From positions 4,231,688 to 4,295,687 of the forward strand of contig CP070758.1 in the NCBI GenBank assembly GCA_020348925.1: 64,000 bases of DNA, read 5' to 3'. Below the pieces are notes generated by a model, which saw nothing but the letters and a program-made list of their open reading frames with translations, had not been told where the DNA came from and ran no database searches. Both the position numbers and the translations under genes were made by a program. This DNA comes from Gemmatimonadota bacterium. GTDB lineage: Bacteria > JBHIER01 > G020348925. Of the stretch, positions 44,943-52,547 are shown piece by piece (positions within the stretch are counted from its first letter, which is position 1; each line of letters starts with the position of its first letter).

Positions 44943-45568
44943 GTTTGCCTCCTGTCATGTGCTCGTCTCATCCCAAATACGCTACAACCATGCGTCCACC
45001 TCAACGCTATGGTCGTATGACATCTTCTCCCAATTACCAGTCTCGTGTCAGGAATTTCTGACCGGAAGGGTTGCAAATGCAATGCGAAAACAGCCCTATT
45101 TTTATACTTTTTAATATAACGCTTCCGAATCCAAATTGCAAGTTCAGCCACCATAATCAATTATAAGTAAGCAGCTTGCATCAACAGAGCGGCTGCCGTC
45201 ACGGCTCGGGGAGAGACGAAAGCTGTGAACATGGAGCGGTTCGGTAGCATCGTACCGGGATTCACATCTTTCCTTTTCTGATAGAACATTTTGCCGACCT
45301 GTGATTGCGAGCTTGGTTATACAAGCTTTTGTATTTTAATGAGAAAGGGATTCTCCTTGGGGGTAATCCCTGAACGCGGGAGCGTGCCTTGCAAGTCGGG
45401 ACGGCCACTCATGTTGTGGCAATTGTTCATGTCAGAGATCGCTCAGGACTCGCCCGTGTACTGTTCAAGGTCAGGAAATCACAGAGACTACTCTTTGGGA
45501 AGGATCTCACACGGAACACATGCGTCTAAAAGGTAACATTGCTTTTTCGAAGACCGAGAAAAAAGGAC

Positions 45569-45597
45569 TTGACAAATATAATGGAACTCTTTAATTT
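45569..45597 (+). promoter_or_regulatory. sigma70-type promoter upstream of the structured RNA and sprA
   Basis: TTGACA-N17-TAATTT preceded by an A-tract. Confidence 0.6.
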
Positions 45598-45603
45598 GTA
45601 AAT

Positions 45604-45834
45604 GTGTTGTATTGAAGGAATCCAAATTATACGTTGAAAAGGAGGCTGGTGCCTATATCCGTTCGTTAAGGGAGTTGGTTGCTACGTAAAAGAGGTCGGA
45701 ATTGACCTCTCAAGCAAGAATAAACGTCAGGTAGTTCAGTGAGCAACCAAGGCCTTTGAACGAACGATGGGTGTACAGCCTTTTTATCATATTATCTTAT
45801 CAAAGGCCAGGTTGCCCAAATCTGGCCTTTTTTT
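45604..45834 (+). ncRNA. Structured non-coding RNA candidate (long rod; 6S-like or cis-regulatory leader)
   Basis: 45638-45685 pairs with 45739-45785 over about 40 bp with several G-U pairs and bulges; apical agaggtc/gacctct hairpin; own promoter and terminator. Confidence 0.55.
45802..45834 (+). terminator. Intrinsic terminator between the RNA candidate and sprA
   Basis: aaaggccaggtt-gccca-aatctggcc followed by 7 T. Confidence 0.8.
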
Positions 45835-45889
45835 GTGCAGGCCTTGAGGACGCAATCGAACGTAAACCGTACGTCTATCGCTGAAATCC

Positions 45890-48800
45890 ATGGAAAGATA
45901 CGGCGACATTCCGGTTGAGTCGGACAAGACCACGGTTTCTTTGTGGATCCCCCCGAAGGAGCTTTTTCTTGTTCTTCTCCTCTCTTTTTTCTCACTGGTC
46001 TCTTCATCCTCGTGGGGAAGTATTACTGTTCCTCCCCTCAATGGAGTGGCAGACCGTGCCGTGAGCCTCTGGGACACGGCTCCCCTGAAACCTTTGAGCA
46101 TAGCCTATCCTTCAGTTCCGGCCTTAATTGTGAATACCAAGGGGTTCACAAGGGATATCTCGGTTGACCCGGAAAAGAGGATTATTACCTTAAAGGAGAC
46201 GGTGCATGGTCTCGAGTTGAAAAGACCCCTCATTTTCGAATTGAACACATTCGTCAAAGTAAAATCCTTGGAGGCGTTACCCAGGTTGCTGCGGGAGGAG
46301 CGCCGGAAAGCCCTGACCGAGGAGCAGGCCGCCGGGACGAAGAGGGCTGGTATCAATATCGACATCCCGGTAAAATTTCCAAAGGCGTTATCTCGCATTA
46401 TCGGTGAGGGGGGCGGTCTCAAAATTACGGGGTACAGGAAAATCAATTTCTCCGGGCGGAGCGAGTGGACGGAGGGGGACGTGCTCACGGCCACGCACCG
46501 CCCCTCGAAATTTCCCTCCCTCGTCATGGAACAGCGATCGCAATTCAAGATCGAAGGGACCATCGGTGAGAAGATACATGTCTATGTCGATCAGGATTCG
46601 GAGCGGATGACAGAATTGGAGAATGCCATCCGAATCAACTACAAAGGCTCGGAGGATGAGATCGTCCAGGAGATCCAGGCGGGCAATACGTCCCTGTCCC
46701 TGCCCGGTACACAATTCGTCAGTTTCAGCCAGCAGAACAAAGGGCTCTTCGGGATCAAGGCCTCGGCCAAAATCGGTCCGGTCGATCTCGTGGCCATCGC
46801 CAGCCAGGATAAGGGAGCGGGACAAAGAAAGTCCTTCCAGGCCGGGGCCGAGAGCTCGGCCGATAAAATTCCGGACTATCGCTACGATACAAGCCGCTAT
46901 TTTTTTCTGGATGCGATGTATGTGAAGAACTACTACGAGAACTACACCCAGGATTGGAAACACATTGCTGCTAACGAAAGAATCGACAGCCTCGAGGTCT
47001 TCATCGATGACAACATAAACAACGACCTGGAGGGAAGGGGCAAGCTTGCCGACGCTGTTGTGAATCCACAATCTGATGACACGACGACATTCGACGACAT
47101 AGGGGACGATGAAAACCATCATGGATACTTCGACCTTTTGGACCCCGACGAATACTTTGTGCAGAAGGATCTGGGCTACATTCGGCTCAATTCGACCATA
47201 ACCGGGGAAAAGACCTTGGCTGTGAGATACAAACTGGTGAACAGTACAACCTGGGTCGGCACGGCACCGAGCGATACGAGCAGCGACTTGCTATTGAAGT
47301 TGATCAGACCGGGGAGTCCACGGCCCAGCCATGATACCTGGGATCTCTCATGGAAGAACGTTTACTCCCTGGGAAGAATATCCGAGGACGGTTTGGACAT
47401 AAAAATTTACTTCGACACAGCCGGCGAGGAGGATGACGACTCACAGGGCGGTGACAAATACGTGACCATCATGGGACTCGATAAGTACAACAATGCAAAT
47501 CCCGGCACACAGCTACCGGACAATCTGTTTGACGCGTTCGACAGATCTCTCGTCAATTATGAACTTGGTGAGCTCCACTTTCCCCAGCAACGGCCCTTTG
47601 CTCCTGATACCGCCCTTTTTGGGATTCCTCTCAACACGCCTGTTCCGGAGATCTATGATGAGTCCAATACTACCCTTCGACAACAGGCCACTAAGTATTA
47701 CATCGCCGTTGAATCGCAAACGCGGAAGACGTCTTACAGCCTGGGCATCAATATCATTGAGGGCTCGGAGGTGGTCAAGCTCAACGGGCGGGCGCTCCAG
47801 AGGAACAAGGATTACAACATCATCTATGAGGTCGGTCAGATCACGTTTTTGACGGATGAGGCCATGGATCCCTCTGCGGATATTACGGTGGACTACGAGT
47901 ATGCGCCCTTTTTCATGCCGGAGAAAAAGACTCTGTTGGGCTTTCGAGCCGACTATTCCTTCTGGGAGGACGCGTCCTGGGGAGCGACTTTTCTGTATCG
48001 GAGTGAAAGCACCATAGACCGCCGTATCCGCCTGGGTCAGGAGCCCTCGCGGGCCATCGTCTGGGACTCCGACATTCACCTCAATTTCGAGCCCCAGATT
48101 CTGACGGACATGGTGGATGCCCTGCCCTTCGTGCGGACCAATGCGCCGTCGGCTCTCAAAATCGACGGTGAGGTCGCCCAGAGCTTGCCCAACTCGAACA
48201 CAAAGGGCGATGCCTACGTGGACGATTTCGACGGCAGTAAGAATACGACGAGCTTGGGAGTCATGAGGGGCCACTGGACTCTGGCCAGCCCACCGAGTTC
48301 CGATGATCCTGTCAGGGGTCAATACTCGATCTGGAGTCGTTGGCAGTCCTTTTACTGGTACAATCCTTACACACAGGTGAGTGTAACGGATATCTGGCCT
48401 GAAAAAGAGGTCCTCGGCCGGGAGAACAAGACCCACGTGCTGACCCTCGAGTTCACACCCAAATCAGATCCCATCTATAACCCAAATCCGGCCAACTCCT
48501 GGGCCGGAGTGATGCGGGCGCTCTCTCAGGGGAACTACAATCAGTCGCTCAACAAGTACCTCGAAGTCTGGGTGCAGGGATCCAGCGGCCAAGTGAACAT
48601 CGATCTCGGTCTCATCAGCGAGGACGTCATTCCCAACGGCAAGCTCGATTCCGAGGATATTGGTGCGGATACTGGAGTGGGAGATGGAATCCTGGACAAA
48701 GATCCCGACGAAGATGTAGGAATGGACGGTATGGCCGACGGCGACCCAAGAGCCGTTGCTGCCGGGGGAGATTTCTGGGATATTGACAGTATCGGCTCGA

Positions 48801-51800
48801 AACAGGCTTGGGAACCATACAGTAACGATAACTGGAACTACAACAACAAGAATATTTACACGCAAATTAACGGTACCGAGGGAAACCGGGACGATTACGA
48901 CAGGGCACAACGGCCGGACACCGAGGACATTAACGGGAAATCGTTGCTGGAAACAGAGAACGCCTTCTTCAGATATTCCTTTTCTCTGGAAGAGGACAGT
49001 CCGGATACGGTTTACGTGGCCGGCGGTGATCCGAATGTCCCATGGAGAACGAGATGGCGCCTCTACCGCATTCCGCTGGCCCAGGCATCCGATACGGTCG
49101 GAGCGGCGGATATGGAACAAATTCGGTTTGCCCGGATCTGGATCACCGGAGTCGCGCGTCCCACAACAATAAGTCTGGCCGCCATCGACATCGTCGGCAA
49201 CGACTGGTTGGAGGATGGGATCGAGCCCGCCGCCCTTGTCTCCATCGATGAAACCTTCTCCGTGGCCGTGAAGAATACACACGATAATCCTGAGCCCGAC
49301 TACATACCACCGCCCGGTGTCGAGGGTGTCAAAGACGCGGTCACCGGACTCAGGCAGATGGAGCAGTCGCTGGTGTTGATGTTTGAGAACCTCGCACCAG
49401 GCCATTCCGGCTCGGCGAGTCAGGACTACTCCACCCAGGCGAAAGATTTTACCCAATATCGAACGCTCCGCATGTACGTTCATGGCAATCTCCGCAGTTC
49501 CGCGGGGGTCGACATAGGGGTGGCTGAATTCTTCTTCCGGTTCGGGGCCGATGCCAAGAACTACTATGAGTATCACACCATGATCTACCCCGGCTGGGAT
49601 CCGCGCAATGAGGTCAACATCGAATTTGATGATCTGACGAACCTCAAGTACCAGAAGCTGGAATCCGGCAATACCGAGGGAGATACGACGGACGGTCACT
49701 TCACCGTCATGGGAAAGCCCTCTCTTTCCGCCATAAAAAAGCTTACTGCCGGTGTGAAGAGCGTCTCGTTCCATCCGGTTCAAAAGGGGATCGGCACACC
49801 CAGGAGGGAGGAGACCATCTCCGGTGAAGTGTGGATCGATGAGCTGCGGCTGTCCAATGCGAGGGACGATCCGGGACTGGCCAGTAGGCTGACAGTGAAT
49901 GCAACCCTGGCCGATTTGGGCGGAGTTACGTTCAATATGAGCAGAACGGACGCCGAGTTCCAATCCTTAGGAGCTGGCTCTCGCTCCGACGCCCAAAAGA
50001 CTGCCAAATCGGACGAGAGTATCCAGGGAAATCTCAACGCGGACAAGTTTCTGCCTGAGAAGTGGGGGATTTCTCTGCCCGTTTCAGGAAGCTACAGTAA
50101 GACGACGCAGTTGCCGAAGTTACAAAAGGGTTCCGATGTGAACCTGACCAGCGACGAACAGTGGAGGCAGCGAACCGAAAATATCAGTAAAAGTGGTCGA
50201 ATCAGCTTCAGCAAGACGAAGCCGTCGTCTTTCTGGCTGTTGGGATTAACCCTCGATCGAATGAAAGTTTCAGCTTCGGGTTCGGAGAAAGAGGGGCGTT
50301 CGACGACCAATCCCTACAGCCTGACCCGACAGTTGAGTGGCTCTTTCTCTTATAACTTACAGTCGAAGAAAGATCTGTCGCTCTCCCCCTTGGCTTGGAC
50401 CGCCTCCAAGTTTGTGCCGAAGTTCATCTCGGAGACAAAAATAACCCTCATACCATCAAACATAAGTTTTGACACGAGTATCAACCAGACGCGGACCCAG
50501 AAAGTGGACCGTCATGACATACTCACGTCAAATTTTTCGCGGAAGACGACACAAAAAGTGAACAGCAGCATGAATCCCTTCGGTTCGGTATCGGCCAATT
50601 ATTCCTTTAACAGGGGCTTTGACAGCCAGAGAGCTCAGGTGATGAGACTGAGATTTGGTCGGGAGACGGACCGAACGCAATCGCTCTCTCTAACCTATAA
50701 ACCGCCGTTTCTCAAGTGGTTGGGTCCAAACTACTCTTACCGGATCAACTATCACGAAAAGGAGAATACGAAAGTAAAACCGCAGGAGATAGATACAACT
50801 TCTACTTCTACGAGAGAGTTTGGACTGGACGCCGACAACAGTATCAGCCACTCGATTGGGGCCAGCCTGAATGTCTCGCAGTTTTTAACCTCTCTGGGCG
50901 CGCCGAAGAAGGATGAGAAAATCGGACTTCTTTCGTACAAGAGAGTACTCGGAACATTGAAGTATGTCACCGATCGTTTTCAGAGTGTCTCCGCGTCCTT
51001 TCAGAAGGATCGGAGATCGAACTGGTTCAGCTTGCTGGGACGCCCCACCTTGGACTATCAGTTCGGATTCAGTAGTGAACCTGGCATTGGGTCAGATCCC
51101 AATTTGACCGGCCAGACCCACACCAGCTCTTCAGGTCAGGGCTGGAGCGCCAAATCGGGCTTGAATCTCATGGCCGGAGTGAACGTAAGCACCAGCATCT
51201 CCTCTGACAATAAATCGACGGTCTCCTCAACCGGACGGTCGGATTCCCGGACGATGACGTTTCCCCAAGTCAGTACACGATGGGGAGACTTTGGTAAGCT
51301 CTATCTCATCAGGAACCTTGTCCAGAGTTCGAGCCTCGATTTCAGCTATACCGAGAAAAAAACCGAGGAGGGCACGGACAATTTCAAGGTGCTCCGCTCC
51401 GAGTCGGTCAACAAGAATTTTTCGCCGCTTTTCTCCTGGTCCGCCACGTGGGCCAAGAACCTGAGCTCCACCCTGACGAGCAATCGAACGGAGACGGTCA
51501 ACACCGATCATCAACGAGATACGGAAACGGTCCAGACGAACTCGTCCCTGCGGGCCTCGTTCAAATACAGCTTCAGTGCACCGCAAGGGATTACACTCCC
51601 GCTCTTCGGAAAAGTGAAATTTCAGAGTAATTTGAACGTGAATCTCGATTTCAAACTCGATAACACGAAAAACATAACAAAGAATGCGGCCAACCCGGTC
51701 ACAAAGGATGATCAAACACGATCCATCTCTCTGGGCGGAAGCTACACCTTCAGCAAGAAAGTGAAGGGCGGGCTGAAGGTCGAAATAAGTGATCGGCACG

Positions 51801-51868
51801 ACCGCAAGACAGACAAAAAAACAATGGTCCGGGACGTCGGTCTGTGGACGGAAATCCGGTTTGATTAG
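45890..51868 (+). CDS. sprA: SprA/Sov-like outer-membrane translocon of type IX secretion
   Basis: GEKIHV..D..ELENAIRINY.G.EDEIVQEIQAGNTSLSLP..GLFGIK, KNVYSLG, EGSEVV.LNGR.L, IDLG.ISED, PDTEDING, WRLYRIPL, EVWIDELRL, and a long amphipathic beta-strand C-terminus; exact start uncertain. Confidence 0.85.
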   Translation: MERYGDIPVESDKTTVSLWIPPKELFLVLLLSFFSLVSSSSWGSITVPPLNGVADRAVSLWDTAPLKPLSIAYPSVPALIVNTKGFTRDISVDPEKRIITLKETVHGLELKRPLIFELNTFVKVKSLEALPRLLREERRKALTEEQAAGTKRAGINIDIPVKFPKALSRIIGEGGGLKITGYRKINFSGRSEWTEGDVLTATHRPSKFPSLVMEQRSQFKIEGTIGEKIHVYVDQDSERMTELENAIRINYKGSEDEIVQEIQAGNTSLSLPGTQFVSFSQQNKGLFGIKASAKIGPVDLVAIASQDKGAGQRKSFQAGAESSADKIPDYRYDTSRYFFLDAMYVKNYYENYTQDWKHIAANERIDSLEVFIDDNINNDLEGRGKLADAVVNPQSDDTTTFDDIGDDENHHGYFDLLDPDEYFVQKDLGYIRLNSTITGEKTLAVRYKLVNSTTWVGTAPSDTSSDLLLKLIRPGSPRPSHDTWDLSWKNVYSLGRISEDGLDIKIYFDTAGEEDDDSQGGDKYVTIMGLDKYNNANPGTQLPDNLFDAFDRSLVNYELGELHFPQQRPFAPDTALFGIPLNTPVPEIYDESNTTLRQQATKYYIAVESQTRKTSYSLGINIIEGSEVVKLNGRALQRNKDYNIIYEVGQITFLTDEAMDPSADITVDYEYAPFFMPEKKTLLGFRADYSFWEDASWGATFLYRSESTIDRRIRLGQEPSRAIVWDSDIHLNFEPQILTDMVDALPFVRTNAPSALKIDGEVAQSLPNSNTKGDAYVDDFDGSKNTTSLGVMRGHWTLASPPSSDDPVRGQYSIWSRWQSFYWYNPYTQVSVTDIWPEKEVLGRENKTHVLTLEFTPKSDPIYNPNPANSWAGVMRALSQGNYNQSLNKYLEVWVQGSSGQVNIDLGLISEDVIPNGKLDSEDIGADTGVGDGILDKDPDEDVGMDGMADGDPRAVAAGGDFWDIDSIGSKQAWEPYSNDNWNYNNKNIYTQINGTEGNRDDYDRAQRPDTEDINGKSLLETENAFFRYSFSLEEDSPDTVYVAGGDPNVPWRTRWRLYRIPLAQASDTVGAADMEQIRFARIWITGVARPTTISLAAIDIVGNDWLEDGIEPAALVSIDETFSVAVKNTHDNPEPDYIPPPGVEGVKDAVTGLRQMEQSLVLMFENLAPGHSGSASQDYSTQAKDFTQYRTLRMYVHGNLRSSAGVDIGVAEFFFRFGADAKNYYEYHTMIYPGWDPRNEVNIEFDDLTNLKYQKLESGNTEGDTTDGHFTVMGKPSLSAIKKLTAGVKSVSFHPVQKGIGTPRREETISGEVWIDELRLSNARDDPGLASRLTVNATLADLGGVTFNMSRTDAEFQSLGAGSRSDAQKTAKSDESIQGNLNADKFLPEKWGISLPVSGSYSKTTQLPKLQKGSDVNLTSDEQWRQRTENISKSGRISFSKTKPSSFWLLGLTLDRMKVSASGSEKEGRSTTNPYSLTRQLSGSFSYNLQSKKDLSLSPLAWTASKFVPKFISETKITLIPSNISFDTSINQTRTQKVDRHDILTSNFSRKTTQKVNSSMNPFGSVSANYSFNRGFDSQRAQVMRLRFGRETDRTQSLSLTYKPPFLKWLGPNYSYRINYHEKENTKVKPQEIDTTSTSTREFGLDADNSISHSIGASLNVSQFLTSLGAPKKDEKIGLLSYKRVLGTLKYVTDRFQSVSASFQKDRRSNWFSLLGRPTLDYQFGFSSEPGIGSDPNLTGQTHTSSSGQGWSAKSGLNLMAGVNVSTSISSDNKSTVSSTGRSDSRTMTFPQVSTRWGDFGKLYLIRNLVQSSSLDFSYTEKKTEEGTDNFKVLRSESVNKNFSPLFSWSATWAKNLSSTLTSNRTETVNTDHQRDTETVQTNSSLRASFKYSFSAPQGITLPLFGKVKFQSNLNVNLDFKLDNTKNITKNAANPVTKDDQTRSISLGGSYTFSKKVKGGLKVEISDRHDRKTDKKTMVRDVGLWTEIRFD

Positions 51869-52451: not shown

Positions 52452-52480
52452 TTGACATTATTGTCGAGATGAAGTATTTT
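52452..52480 (+). promoter_or_regulatory. sigma70-type promoter for the pilin gene
   Basis: TTGACA-N17-TATTTT. Confidence 0.6.
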
Positions 52481-52547
52481 AACGAATCGCGCTTTGAAGA
52501 ATCGTAACAACGGGAGATACAGGAACTTTTTTTAAGGAGGAATCATA

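Follow-up and report, generated by a model that had tools for sequence, protein, structure and literature searches.

A conserved RNA leader upstream of type IX secretion genes in Gemmatimonadota, most likely a default-off transcription attenuator

The type IX secretion gene sprA of a Gemmatimonadota bacterium (assembly GCA_020348925.1) lies within a 64,000-nt stretch of contig CP070758.1 (positions 4,231,688-4,295,687, forward strand) that is referred to below as the window. Directly upstream of sprA, on the same (+) strand, there is a compact unit that runs from a promoter to an intrinsic terminator (45569-45836; unless another source is named, positions are those of the window and the elements described are on its + strand) and that we denote the sprA leader. 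Its elements, its conservation, a paralogue and an alternative helix were all observed in silico. The sprA gene itself (45890-51868, ATG at 45890) encodes a protein of 1992 aa with a clear match to the Pfam family SprA_N (E 2.4e-44), and is separated from the terminator by 55 nt. The genome of the window, hereinafter G000, is complete (5.04 Mb), and an exact search showed that the leader sequence is present in it in a single copy. The phylum is represented in our genome library by two genomes only, G000 and a second one from a different genus (G001). Residues 1-36 of the predicted SprA (45890-45997) are not conserved with G001, and the true start may lie further downstream, for example, at 45941, where there is a TTG in frame; the terminator would then be followed by a longer untranslated stretch.

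The promoter consists of a -35 box TTGACA (45569-45574), the same as the cTTGACA box found 5' of tRNA genes, and, after a 17-nt spacer, a -10/-7 box TAATTTG (45592-45598). The spacing of these boxes places the predicted transcription start at about 45604, so that the predicted terminated transcript is ~232 nt long (45604-45836). An initial annotation of this DNA, made from the sequence alone, had pointed to the TTGACA-N17-TAATTT promoter, which is indeed present and fits the house promoter of the genome, cTTGACA-N17-TAnnTTTG, a combination of the classical -35 box with a Bacteroidetes-type -7 box at 17-nt spacing. The TAnnTTTG -7 box is the Bacteroidetes sigma-A consensus reported in the main text of PMC9723704. 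Upstream of the tRNA and tmRNA genes of G000, the strict form of the house pattern was detected in 10 of 41 cases and a looser form in 16 of 41. Genome-wide, the strict pattern occurs at 152 sites compared to 23.3 in shuffled sequences; three of these sites are in the window, and one of the three is the site at 45569. The leader promoter is thus of the genome's own type. A generic sigma-70 scan did not list it because TAATTT shares only 3 of its 6 positions with TATAAT. Neither reading of the sequence nor the strict pattern scan revealed a house-type promoter between the terminator and sprA. A further strict match in the window (TTGACATTATTGTCGAGATGAAGTATTTTA, 52452-52481) is located between a ComEA-like gene and a pilM-like gene.

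Downstream of the promoter, the minimum-energy fold contains a long irregular hairpin of ~145 nt, the rod (45639-45785). Its 5' arm (45639-45683), which is segment 1 of the leader and the putative anti-antiterminator strand, includes the motif GUUCGUUAAGGG (45661-45672) that emerged from the comparison of ten leaders described below, and its 3' arm (segment 2, 45742-45785) ends in a U-run (45781-45785). The internal loops of the rod are only 2-5 nt in size. A large open region exists solely at the apex, where it is capped by an 8-bp hairpin (45691-45710, A-rich on the 3' side); the apical junction has an unpaired stretch, GGUAGUUCAGUG (45730-45741), on its 3' side. The rod is followed by the intrinsic terminator (segments 3 and 4, 45802-45834), with a 12-bp stem, a 5-nt loop (hairpin 45802-45830) and a U7 tract (45828-45834). 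Because the rod, ~36 bp in total, itself ends in a U-run, the leader carries two stop signals in tandem, and the terminator stands between the promoter and the sprA open reading frame (ORF) on the same strand, which is the arrangement of an attenuator.

Much of this structure had been anticipated in the initial annotation. All the helices listed there (aggctg/cagcct, gcctat/atgggt, cgttcgtt/aacgaacg, aaggg/ccttt and ttggttgct/agcaaccaa) are present in the minimum-energy fold, and the strong terminator 55 nt before sprA is the 12-bp hairpin with U7; the apical hairpin with its A-rich region is there as well, although its stem has 8 bp rather than the 7 bp originally counted. The + strand folds to -86.7 kcal/mol compared to -57.2 +/- 4.7 for shuffled sequences (z -6.3; no better or equal value in 200 shuffles). 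For the - strand, the energy is only -64.8 kcal/mol because the rod has many G-U pairs, in agreement with the G-U richness noted initially. The structure of the leader therefore exceeds chance and is strand-specific. The 231-nt region immediately upstream (45335-45565) is unstructured (z -0.38 and -0.10 on the two strands), and the 81-aa ORF of this region has neither a Pfam family nor a relative in G001. Also upstream, there is a small hairpin with a U-rich tail at 45303-45330 (GAGCTTGGTTATACAAGCTT...), which is single-copy in the genome and is kept both on a contig of run X10 and, in a different context, in G001 (C273:172-199, 89% identity, E 0.008).

The leader was considered unannotated at the outset, and Rfam 15 indeed yields nothing at the gathering score across the entire window. 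No Rfam aptamer matches the sprA leader or its porU counterparts described below, which speaks against a metabolite riboswitch of a known class, although a ligand of a new kind may be involved. Below the gathering score, the only matches at the locus at E<=10 were chance-level ones, to suhB (E 3.4) and SCARNA7 (E 1.1), and a search of the four porU-leader loci at E<=1 gave a chance match to CRISPR-DR38 (E 0.65).

The leader of G001 is located at the very start of a contig, directly 5' of the sprA gene of that genome, the product of which shows 69% identity to SprA of the window from residue 37 onward; a SprA-based scan of genome contigs returned this contig alone. The identity between the two leaders is 90.7% in the 5' arm, 88.9% in the 3' arm, 80.6% in the terminator and 100% in the loop 45730-45740 (11 of 11 positions), compared to 45.5% in the apical region, 33% in the spacer after the rod, 40% between the terminator and the ATG (33-45% for the spacers overall) and 69-72% in the sprA DNA. 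Between the arms of the two leaders there are 8 substitutions and 1 indel, none of which breaks a pair (P = 0.024 at the observed transition bias and 0.0012 at a transition fraction of 0.5), and in the two-sequence alignment, 92 of 92 cells are paired. The apical hairpin shows two compensatory pair changes and one single-sided change. Judging from these comparisons, the leader is under purifying selection.

A third lineage is represented by contigs of the public sediment/estuary run X10 (four DNA runs were examined), for which the comparison spans 45738-46231. Over this span, the X10 relative has 66 differences, only two of which fall within the 48 nt of the 3' arm, both keeping the pair (U-G to U-A and G-C to G-U). 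The terminator shows no changes in the stem and two in the loop, whereas the 53 nt after it contain 13 differences, and the first 139 nt of sprA contain 21. A metagenome scan with an 18-mer of the conserved loop produced nine stretches, all of them chance matches with unrelated flanks.

The sprA leader is not a solitary element. Upstream of porU-porV, G000 encodes a paralogous leader, which likewise consists of a house promoter (its TTGACA is at genome position 3286797), followed by a rod and a terminator. The 5' arm of this porU leader reads AGUUCGUUAAAGGGUUUGGUUG where the sprA leader has CGUUCGUUAAGGGAGUUGGUUG; its 3' arm pairs with the 5' arm partly via G-U pairs, and the 5' arm of its terminator again matches the 3' arm. 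The same leader is present upstream of porU in G001. Covariance model R1 finds one site per genome in G000 and G001 and matches the porU leaders weakly (16.4 bits, E 0.003, and 10.3 bits, E 0.11). R2, a covariance model of the core shared by the two kinds of leader, has precisely two matches on the + strand in G000 and two in G001. The GGUAGUUCAGUG loop of the sprA leaders is absent from the porU leaders.

PorU scores above the curated cut-off in 23 of the 149 other genomes of the library (25 of 151 when G000 and G001 are included). Inspection by eye of the regions upstream of porU revealed CGUUCGUUAAAGG in the same architecture in G064 and a variant in G003; a two-anchor pattern search missed G064 and gave two chance matches. 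Within the class to which G064 belongs (12 genomes), the exact 12-mer motif occurs at seven sites in six genomes. Six of these seven sites are leaders of the same build, each with a downstream partner of the motif; the next gene encodes PorU in five cases (partial ORFs, E 2.9e-38 to 1.5e-51) and a PorV/PorQ-family protein in the sixth (G151; 312 bits). Altogether, there are ten leaders, two upstream of sprA, seven upstream of porU and one upstream of a PorV-family gene, all on the same strand as the gene and directly upstream of it. A TTGAC-type promoter precedes the motif by 66-103 nt in 8 of the 10, one of the exceptions being cut by a contig end, and a U-run directly follows the rod in 9 of the 10. 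The placement upstream of sprA seems to be particular to this phylum (2 of 2 genomes), given that none of the four sprA loci elsewhere (G064, G003, G159 and G020) has such a leader.

The signature of the family is the sequence GUUCGUUAARGG, which is found in the 5' arm, paired to the downstream 3' arm, in all ten leaders, with variation (A or G) at position 10 only. Opposite the U positions of the motif, the 3' arm has either A or G (in proportions of 5:5, 5:4 and so on among the leaders), and it drifts in this way while the pairing is kept. The pairs that flank the motif covary among the ten leaders (C-G/A-U at -1, A-U/U-A at -2 and G-C/U-A/U-G at 13). These pairs were counted in each sequence separately by duplex folding; MAFFT failed to align all the 3' arms. 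A helix for which only pairing is required would drift on both sides, so that the one-sided conservation points to direct recognition of the 5' strand of the rod. In both lineages, inspection of the sequences shows that the 5' arm of the terminator loosely repeats the strand that carries the motif. Sites with at most one mismatch to the motif are not overrepresented in the genome (16 compared to ~22 expected), and only the two leaders are real. By eye, 8 of the 10 leaders have AUA at a distance of exactly 3 nt from the motif, with a purine-rich stretch of the AAGG type 6-9 nt upstream; this arrangement, which extends over 45639-45669 in the window and ends in GUU-CGU-UAA, may represent either a frame of four codons that begins non-canonically or no more than a portion of the recognized motif.

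The leader can also form an alternative helix. Duplex folding shows that a part of the 3' arm (45743-45759), the putative antiterminator, can pair with 45800-45815 (6 + 9 bp), that is, with the 5' half of the terminator. In the window, this 15-bp helix has an energy of -25.2 kcal/mol compared to -17.8 for the terminator hairpin, and in the sprA leader of G001, the respective values are -27.3 and -14.8 kcal/mol. When the whole 5' arm is blocked, the minimum-energy folds of both sprA leaders form the antiterminator and lose the terminator. Among 48-mers drawn at random from the genome, none of 3957 pairs as well with the terminator arm of the window, and six of at most 4000 do so in G001. The porU leaders of G000 and G001 behave in the same manner: with the 5' arm blocked, the terminator is lost, the duplex energies are -21.0 and -22.4 kcal/mol, and random draws are as good in 25 and 23 of 2984 cases. 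The alternative helix is thus kept, by folding, in all four in-phylum leaders; the six leaders from the other class were judged by eye.

The strength of this pairing was also assessed against the background of the genome, by ranking 214 terminator-like sites by the pairing of the terminator 5' arm with the 60 nt upstream. The sprA leader ranks third of the 214 (-24.4, compared to a mean of -12.2 and a standard deviation of 4.7). The first rank belongs to a c-di-GMP-I riboswitch (RF01051, 80.8 bits, E 7.9e-16), which indicates that the measure detects a known transcriptional switch; three other top-ranked sites that were checked have no Rfam match. This riboswitch, which has a terminator platform, is located outside the window, at L034:233-322 (approximately 4463382-4463471 of G000:C1). 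In the simulated series of transcript lengths, without interference, the rod forms once the 3' arm exists, and then the terminator forms. Because both form unaided, the default state is off.

Combined, these observations make it most likely, in our assessment, that the sprA leader, and with it the family of leaders 5' of type IX outer-membrane genes, is a default-off transcription attenuator that would respond to an effector. Of the two options that the initial annotation had offered besides 6S RNA, a new small RNA (sRNA) or an attenuator, the latter is favored by the conserved alternative helix and by the absence of a detectable house promoter 5' of sprA. We infer that termination and readthrough take place in vivo and that an effector of some nature exists. 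Under this scenario, the strong house-type promoter would fire, and the newly made 3' arm would zip onto the 5' arm, yielding the rod that ends in the U-run; the second hairpin with U7 would then form, and RNA polymerase would stop ~55 nt before sprA. If, instead, the 5' arm were held single-stranded, conceivably, by a factor that recognizes the invariant GUUCGUUAARGG, the 3' arm would pair with the 5' half of the terminator, both stop signals would be lost, and sprA would be transcribed. The paralogue upstream of porU-porV would switch the sortase and shuttle genes together with the translocon. More specifically, we tentatively propose that GUUCGUUAARGG is the docking site of a factor that acts in trans, be it protein, RNA or small ligand, and that the sprA and porU-porV leaders form an RNA-based regulon, a suggestion that we put forward with distinctly less confidence than the attenuation itself.

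Devices of this kind are known. In three-helix attenuators, such as the PyrR-bound pyr leaders of Bacillus and the S-box and T-box expression platforms, the order of the elements is the same as in the sprA leader (promoter, leader, intrinsic terminator, gene), one segment pairs with either an upstream strand or the 5' half of the terminator, and the default fold terminates. Unlike these systems, the sprA leader matches no Rfam family, its anti-antiterminator is a ~36-bp rod with a U-run of its own that provides for two stops, and the genes served by the sprA and porU leaders are those for type IX outer-membrane proteins rather than metabolic genes. The c-di-GMP-I riboswitch of G000 shares with the sprA leader the terminator/antiterminator logic and a place at the top of the antiterminator measure, but has a known aptamer and ligand, whereas the sprA leader has no recognizable aptamer.

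Several observations weigh against the attenuator scenario or against the breadth of the family. First, the rod forms by default at every simulated transcript length and is so stable that switching would require an active factor. Second, a block of only 16 nt (the motif and two flanking bases) leaves the terminator intact in two of the four leaders tested (terminator pairs kept: 12 of 12 in the window and 12 of 12 in the porU leader of G001, compared to 0 of 15 in the sprA leader of G001 and 0 of 13 in the porU leader of G000), so that more of the 5' arm would have to be held. Third, sprA may have a weaker promoter of its own or one that depends on an alternative sigma factor, which is conceivable because strict house-promoter sites number 152 for thousands of genes. 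Fourth, the covariation that the initial annotation had proposed to look for among relatives is weak in the rod: derived from two sequences, it does not by itself reach significance (119 of 500 shuffles scored at least as high). Fifth, outside the phylum, R2 matches none of the 149 genomes and, with filters off, none of 10 porU loci. The link to the class of G064 is a thin one, drawn from the 12-nt motif, the architecture and the gene context, and the 12-mer by itself is no more common in that class than a reversed control (7 and 11 matches, respectively). Finally, the leader of G151 (L075:700-960) lacks the second terminator and consists of a rod and a U-run followed at once by TTGACA, and the RNA in that genome may be a separate transcript.

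This last case is among the reasons to take seriously, even if as an unlikely alternative, a stand-alone small RNA that would act in trans, through base pairing or by serving as a decoy for a protein, with sprA and porU transcribed from their own promoters; its association with secretion genes would then reflect regulation or history rather than action in cis. The unit is complete from promoter to terminator, its two consecutive stop signals (rod with U-run and hairpin with U7) would suit such an RNA, and, according to PMC6614838, attenuator-derived RNAs can act in trans too. However, all ten members are on the same strand as a type IX secretion gene and directly before it, and the helix that removes the terminator, for which a trans-acting RNA has no role, is nevertheless kept in each of the four in-phylum leaders. 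Furthermore, the 55 nt before sprA contain no house promoter that we could find, neither Hfq nor CsrA was found in the complete genome, and there is no excess in it of sequences complementary to the conserved loop GGUAGUUCAGUG, with no further exact sites and nine one-mismatch sites compared to ~22 expected.

The same in-cis logic could, in principle, be served by the ribosome: a tiny frame ending in GUU CGU UAA would be translated, and the ribosome, by covering the 5' arm, would bring about readthrough. In the window, AAGGAGG (45639-45645) is followed by GUG-CCU-AUA-UCC-GUU-CGU-UAA, starting from the GUG at 45649; AUA precedes the motif at the fixed distance in most of the leaders, as noted above, and the organism does use Shine-Dalgarno sequences (1085 of 2580 long ORFs compared to 330 at a control position). 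We nonetheless regard this possibility as improbable. A canonical start is present in the window only, the sprA leader of G001 has AAA in place of the AUA, and the AUA of G151 is not in the reading frame; the spacing between GGAGG and the GUG is 3 nt; and pairing with the U-run at the rod base would account just as well for the purine-rich stretch. No conserved short ORF with a start codon and a ribosome-binding site was found among the leaders, which speaks against a leader-peptide attenuator.

Even less probable is a DNA-level loading site for a NusG-like factor that would render the polymerase resistant to termination, in the manner of RfaH and ops, with the rod being secondary. The invariance of the 5' (non-template) strand of the motif alone, with a drifting partner, would be compatible with such a site, and so would the nature of the genes served, which are long envelope genes, the RfaH/UpxY systems providing an analogy. 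But the complete genome encodes a single NusG-domain protein, without a paralogue, and the conserved alternative helices would be left unexplained.

A divergent 6S RNA, as suggested in the initial annotation, which would mimic an open promoter and sequester the RNA polymerase holoenzyme, can be dismissed almost entirely: the leader resembles 6S RNA in being an elongated rod with its own promoter and many G-U pairs, and the slot is formally empty in this genome, where the 6S models RF00013 and RF01685 (6S-Flavo) find nothing at E<=1, but the same models give no match in 45100-46000 even at E<=10, a central bubble framed by long helices on both sides is absent, the open region being apical, and the terminator/antiterminator pair and the presence of two paralogous copies in each genome, both upstream of secretion genes, contradict the 6S identity both in structure and in copy number. 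The signal recognition particle RNA (74.1 bits), a tmRNA and a tRNA-SeC are present in G000.

The default-off attenuator thus remains the preferred interpretation. The device is of a known kind, whereas the family, the set of genes it precedes and the invariant motif appear to be new. In the Bacteroidota group, type IX secretion drives gliding, the degradation of polymers and virulence, and its known control involves sigma factors and two-component systems. The main text of PMC9723704 describes type IX secretion system (T9SS) genes of Bacteroidetes under sigma-ECF control, which shares with the leaders the coordinated control of type IX components; that control, as presented there, acts via promoters and an alternative sigma factor, whereas here an RNA leader is located behind a housekeeping-type promoter. 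There is no occurrence of sprA in that main text, and full-text literature searches, which did not extend to the supplements of PMC9723704 with their 64 structured 5' regions, returned no RNA leader of sprA or porU.

If the proposed scenario is correct, the leaders would constitute a new class of riboregulators and the first case of control of type IX secretion at the RNA level, with a regulon that jointly turns on the type IX translocon and its sortase and shuttle partners in at least two deep bacterial lineages. The 12-base motif and the two competing helices would then provide a short, testable handle on the matched production of large outer-membrane components, and there would be an effector worth finding.

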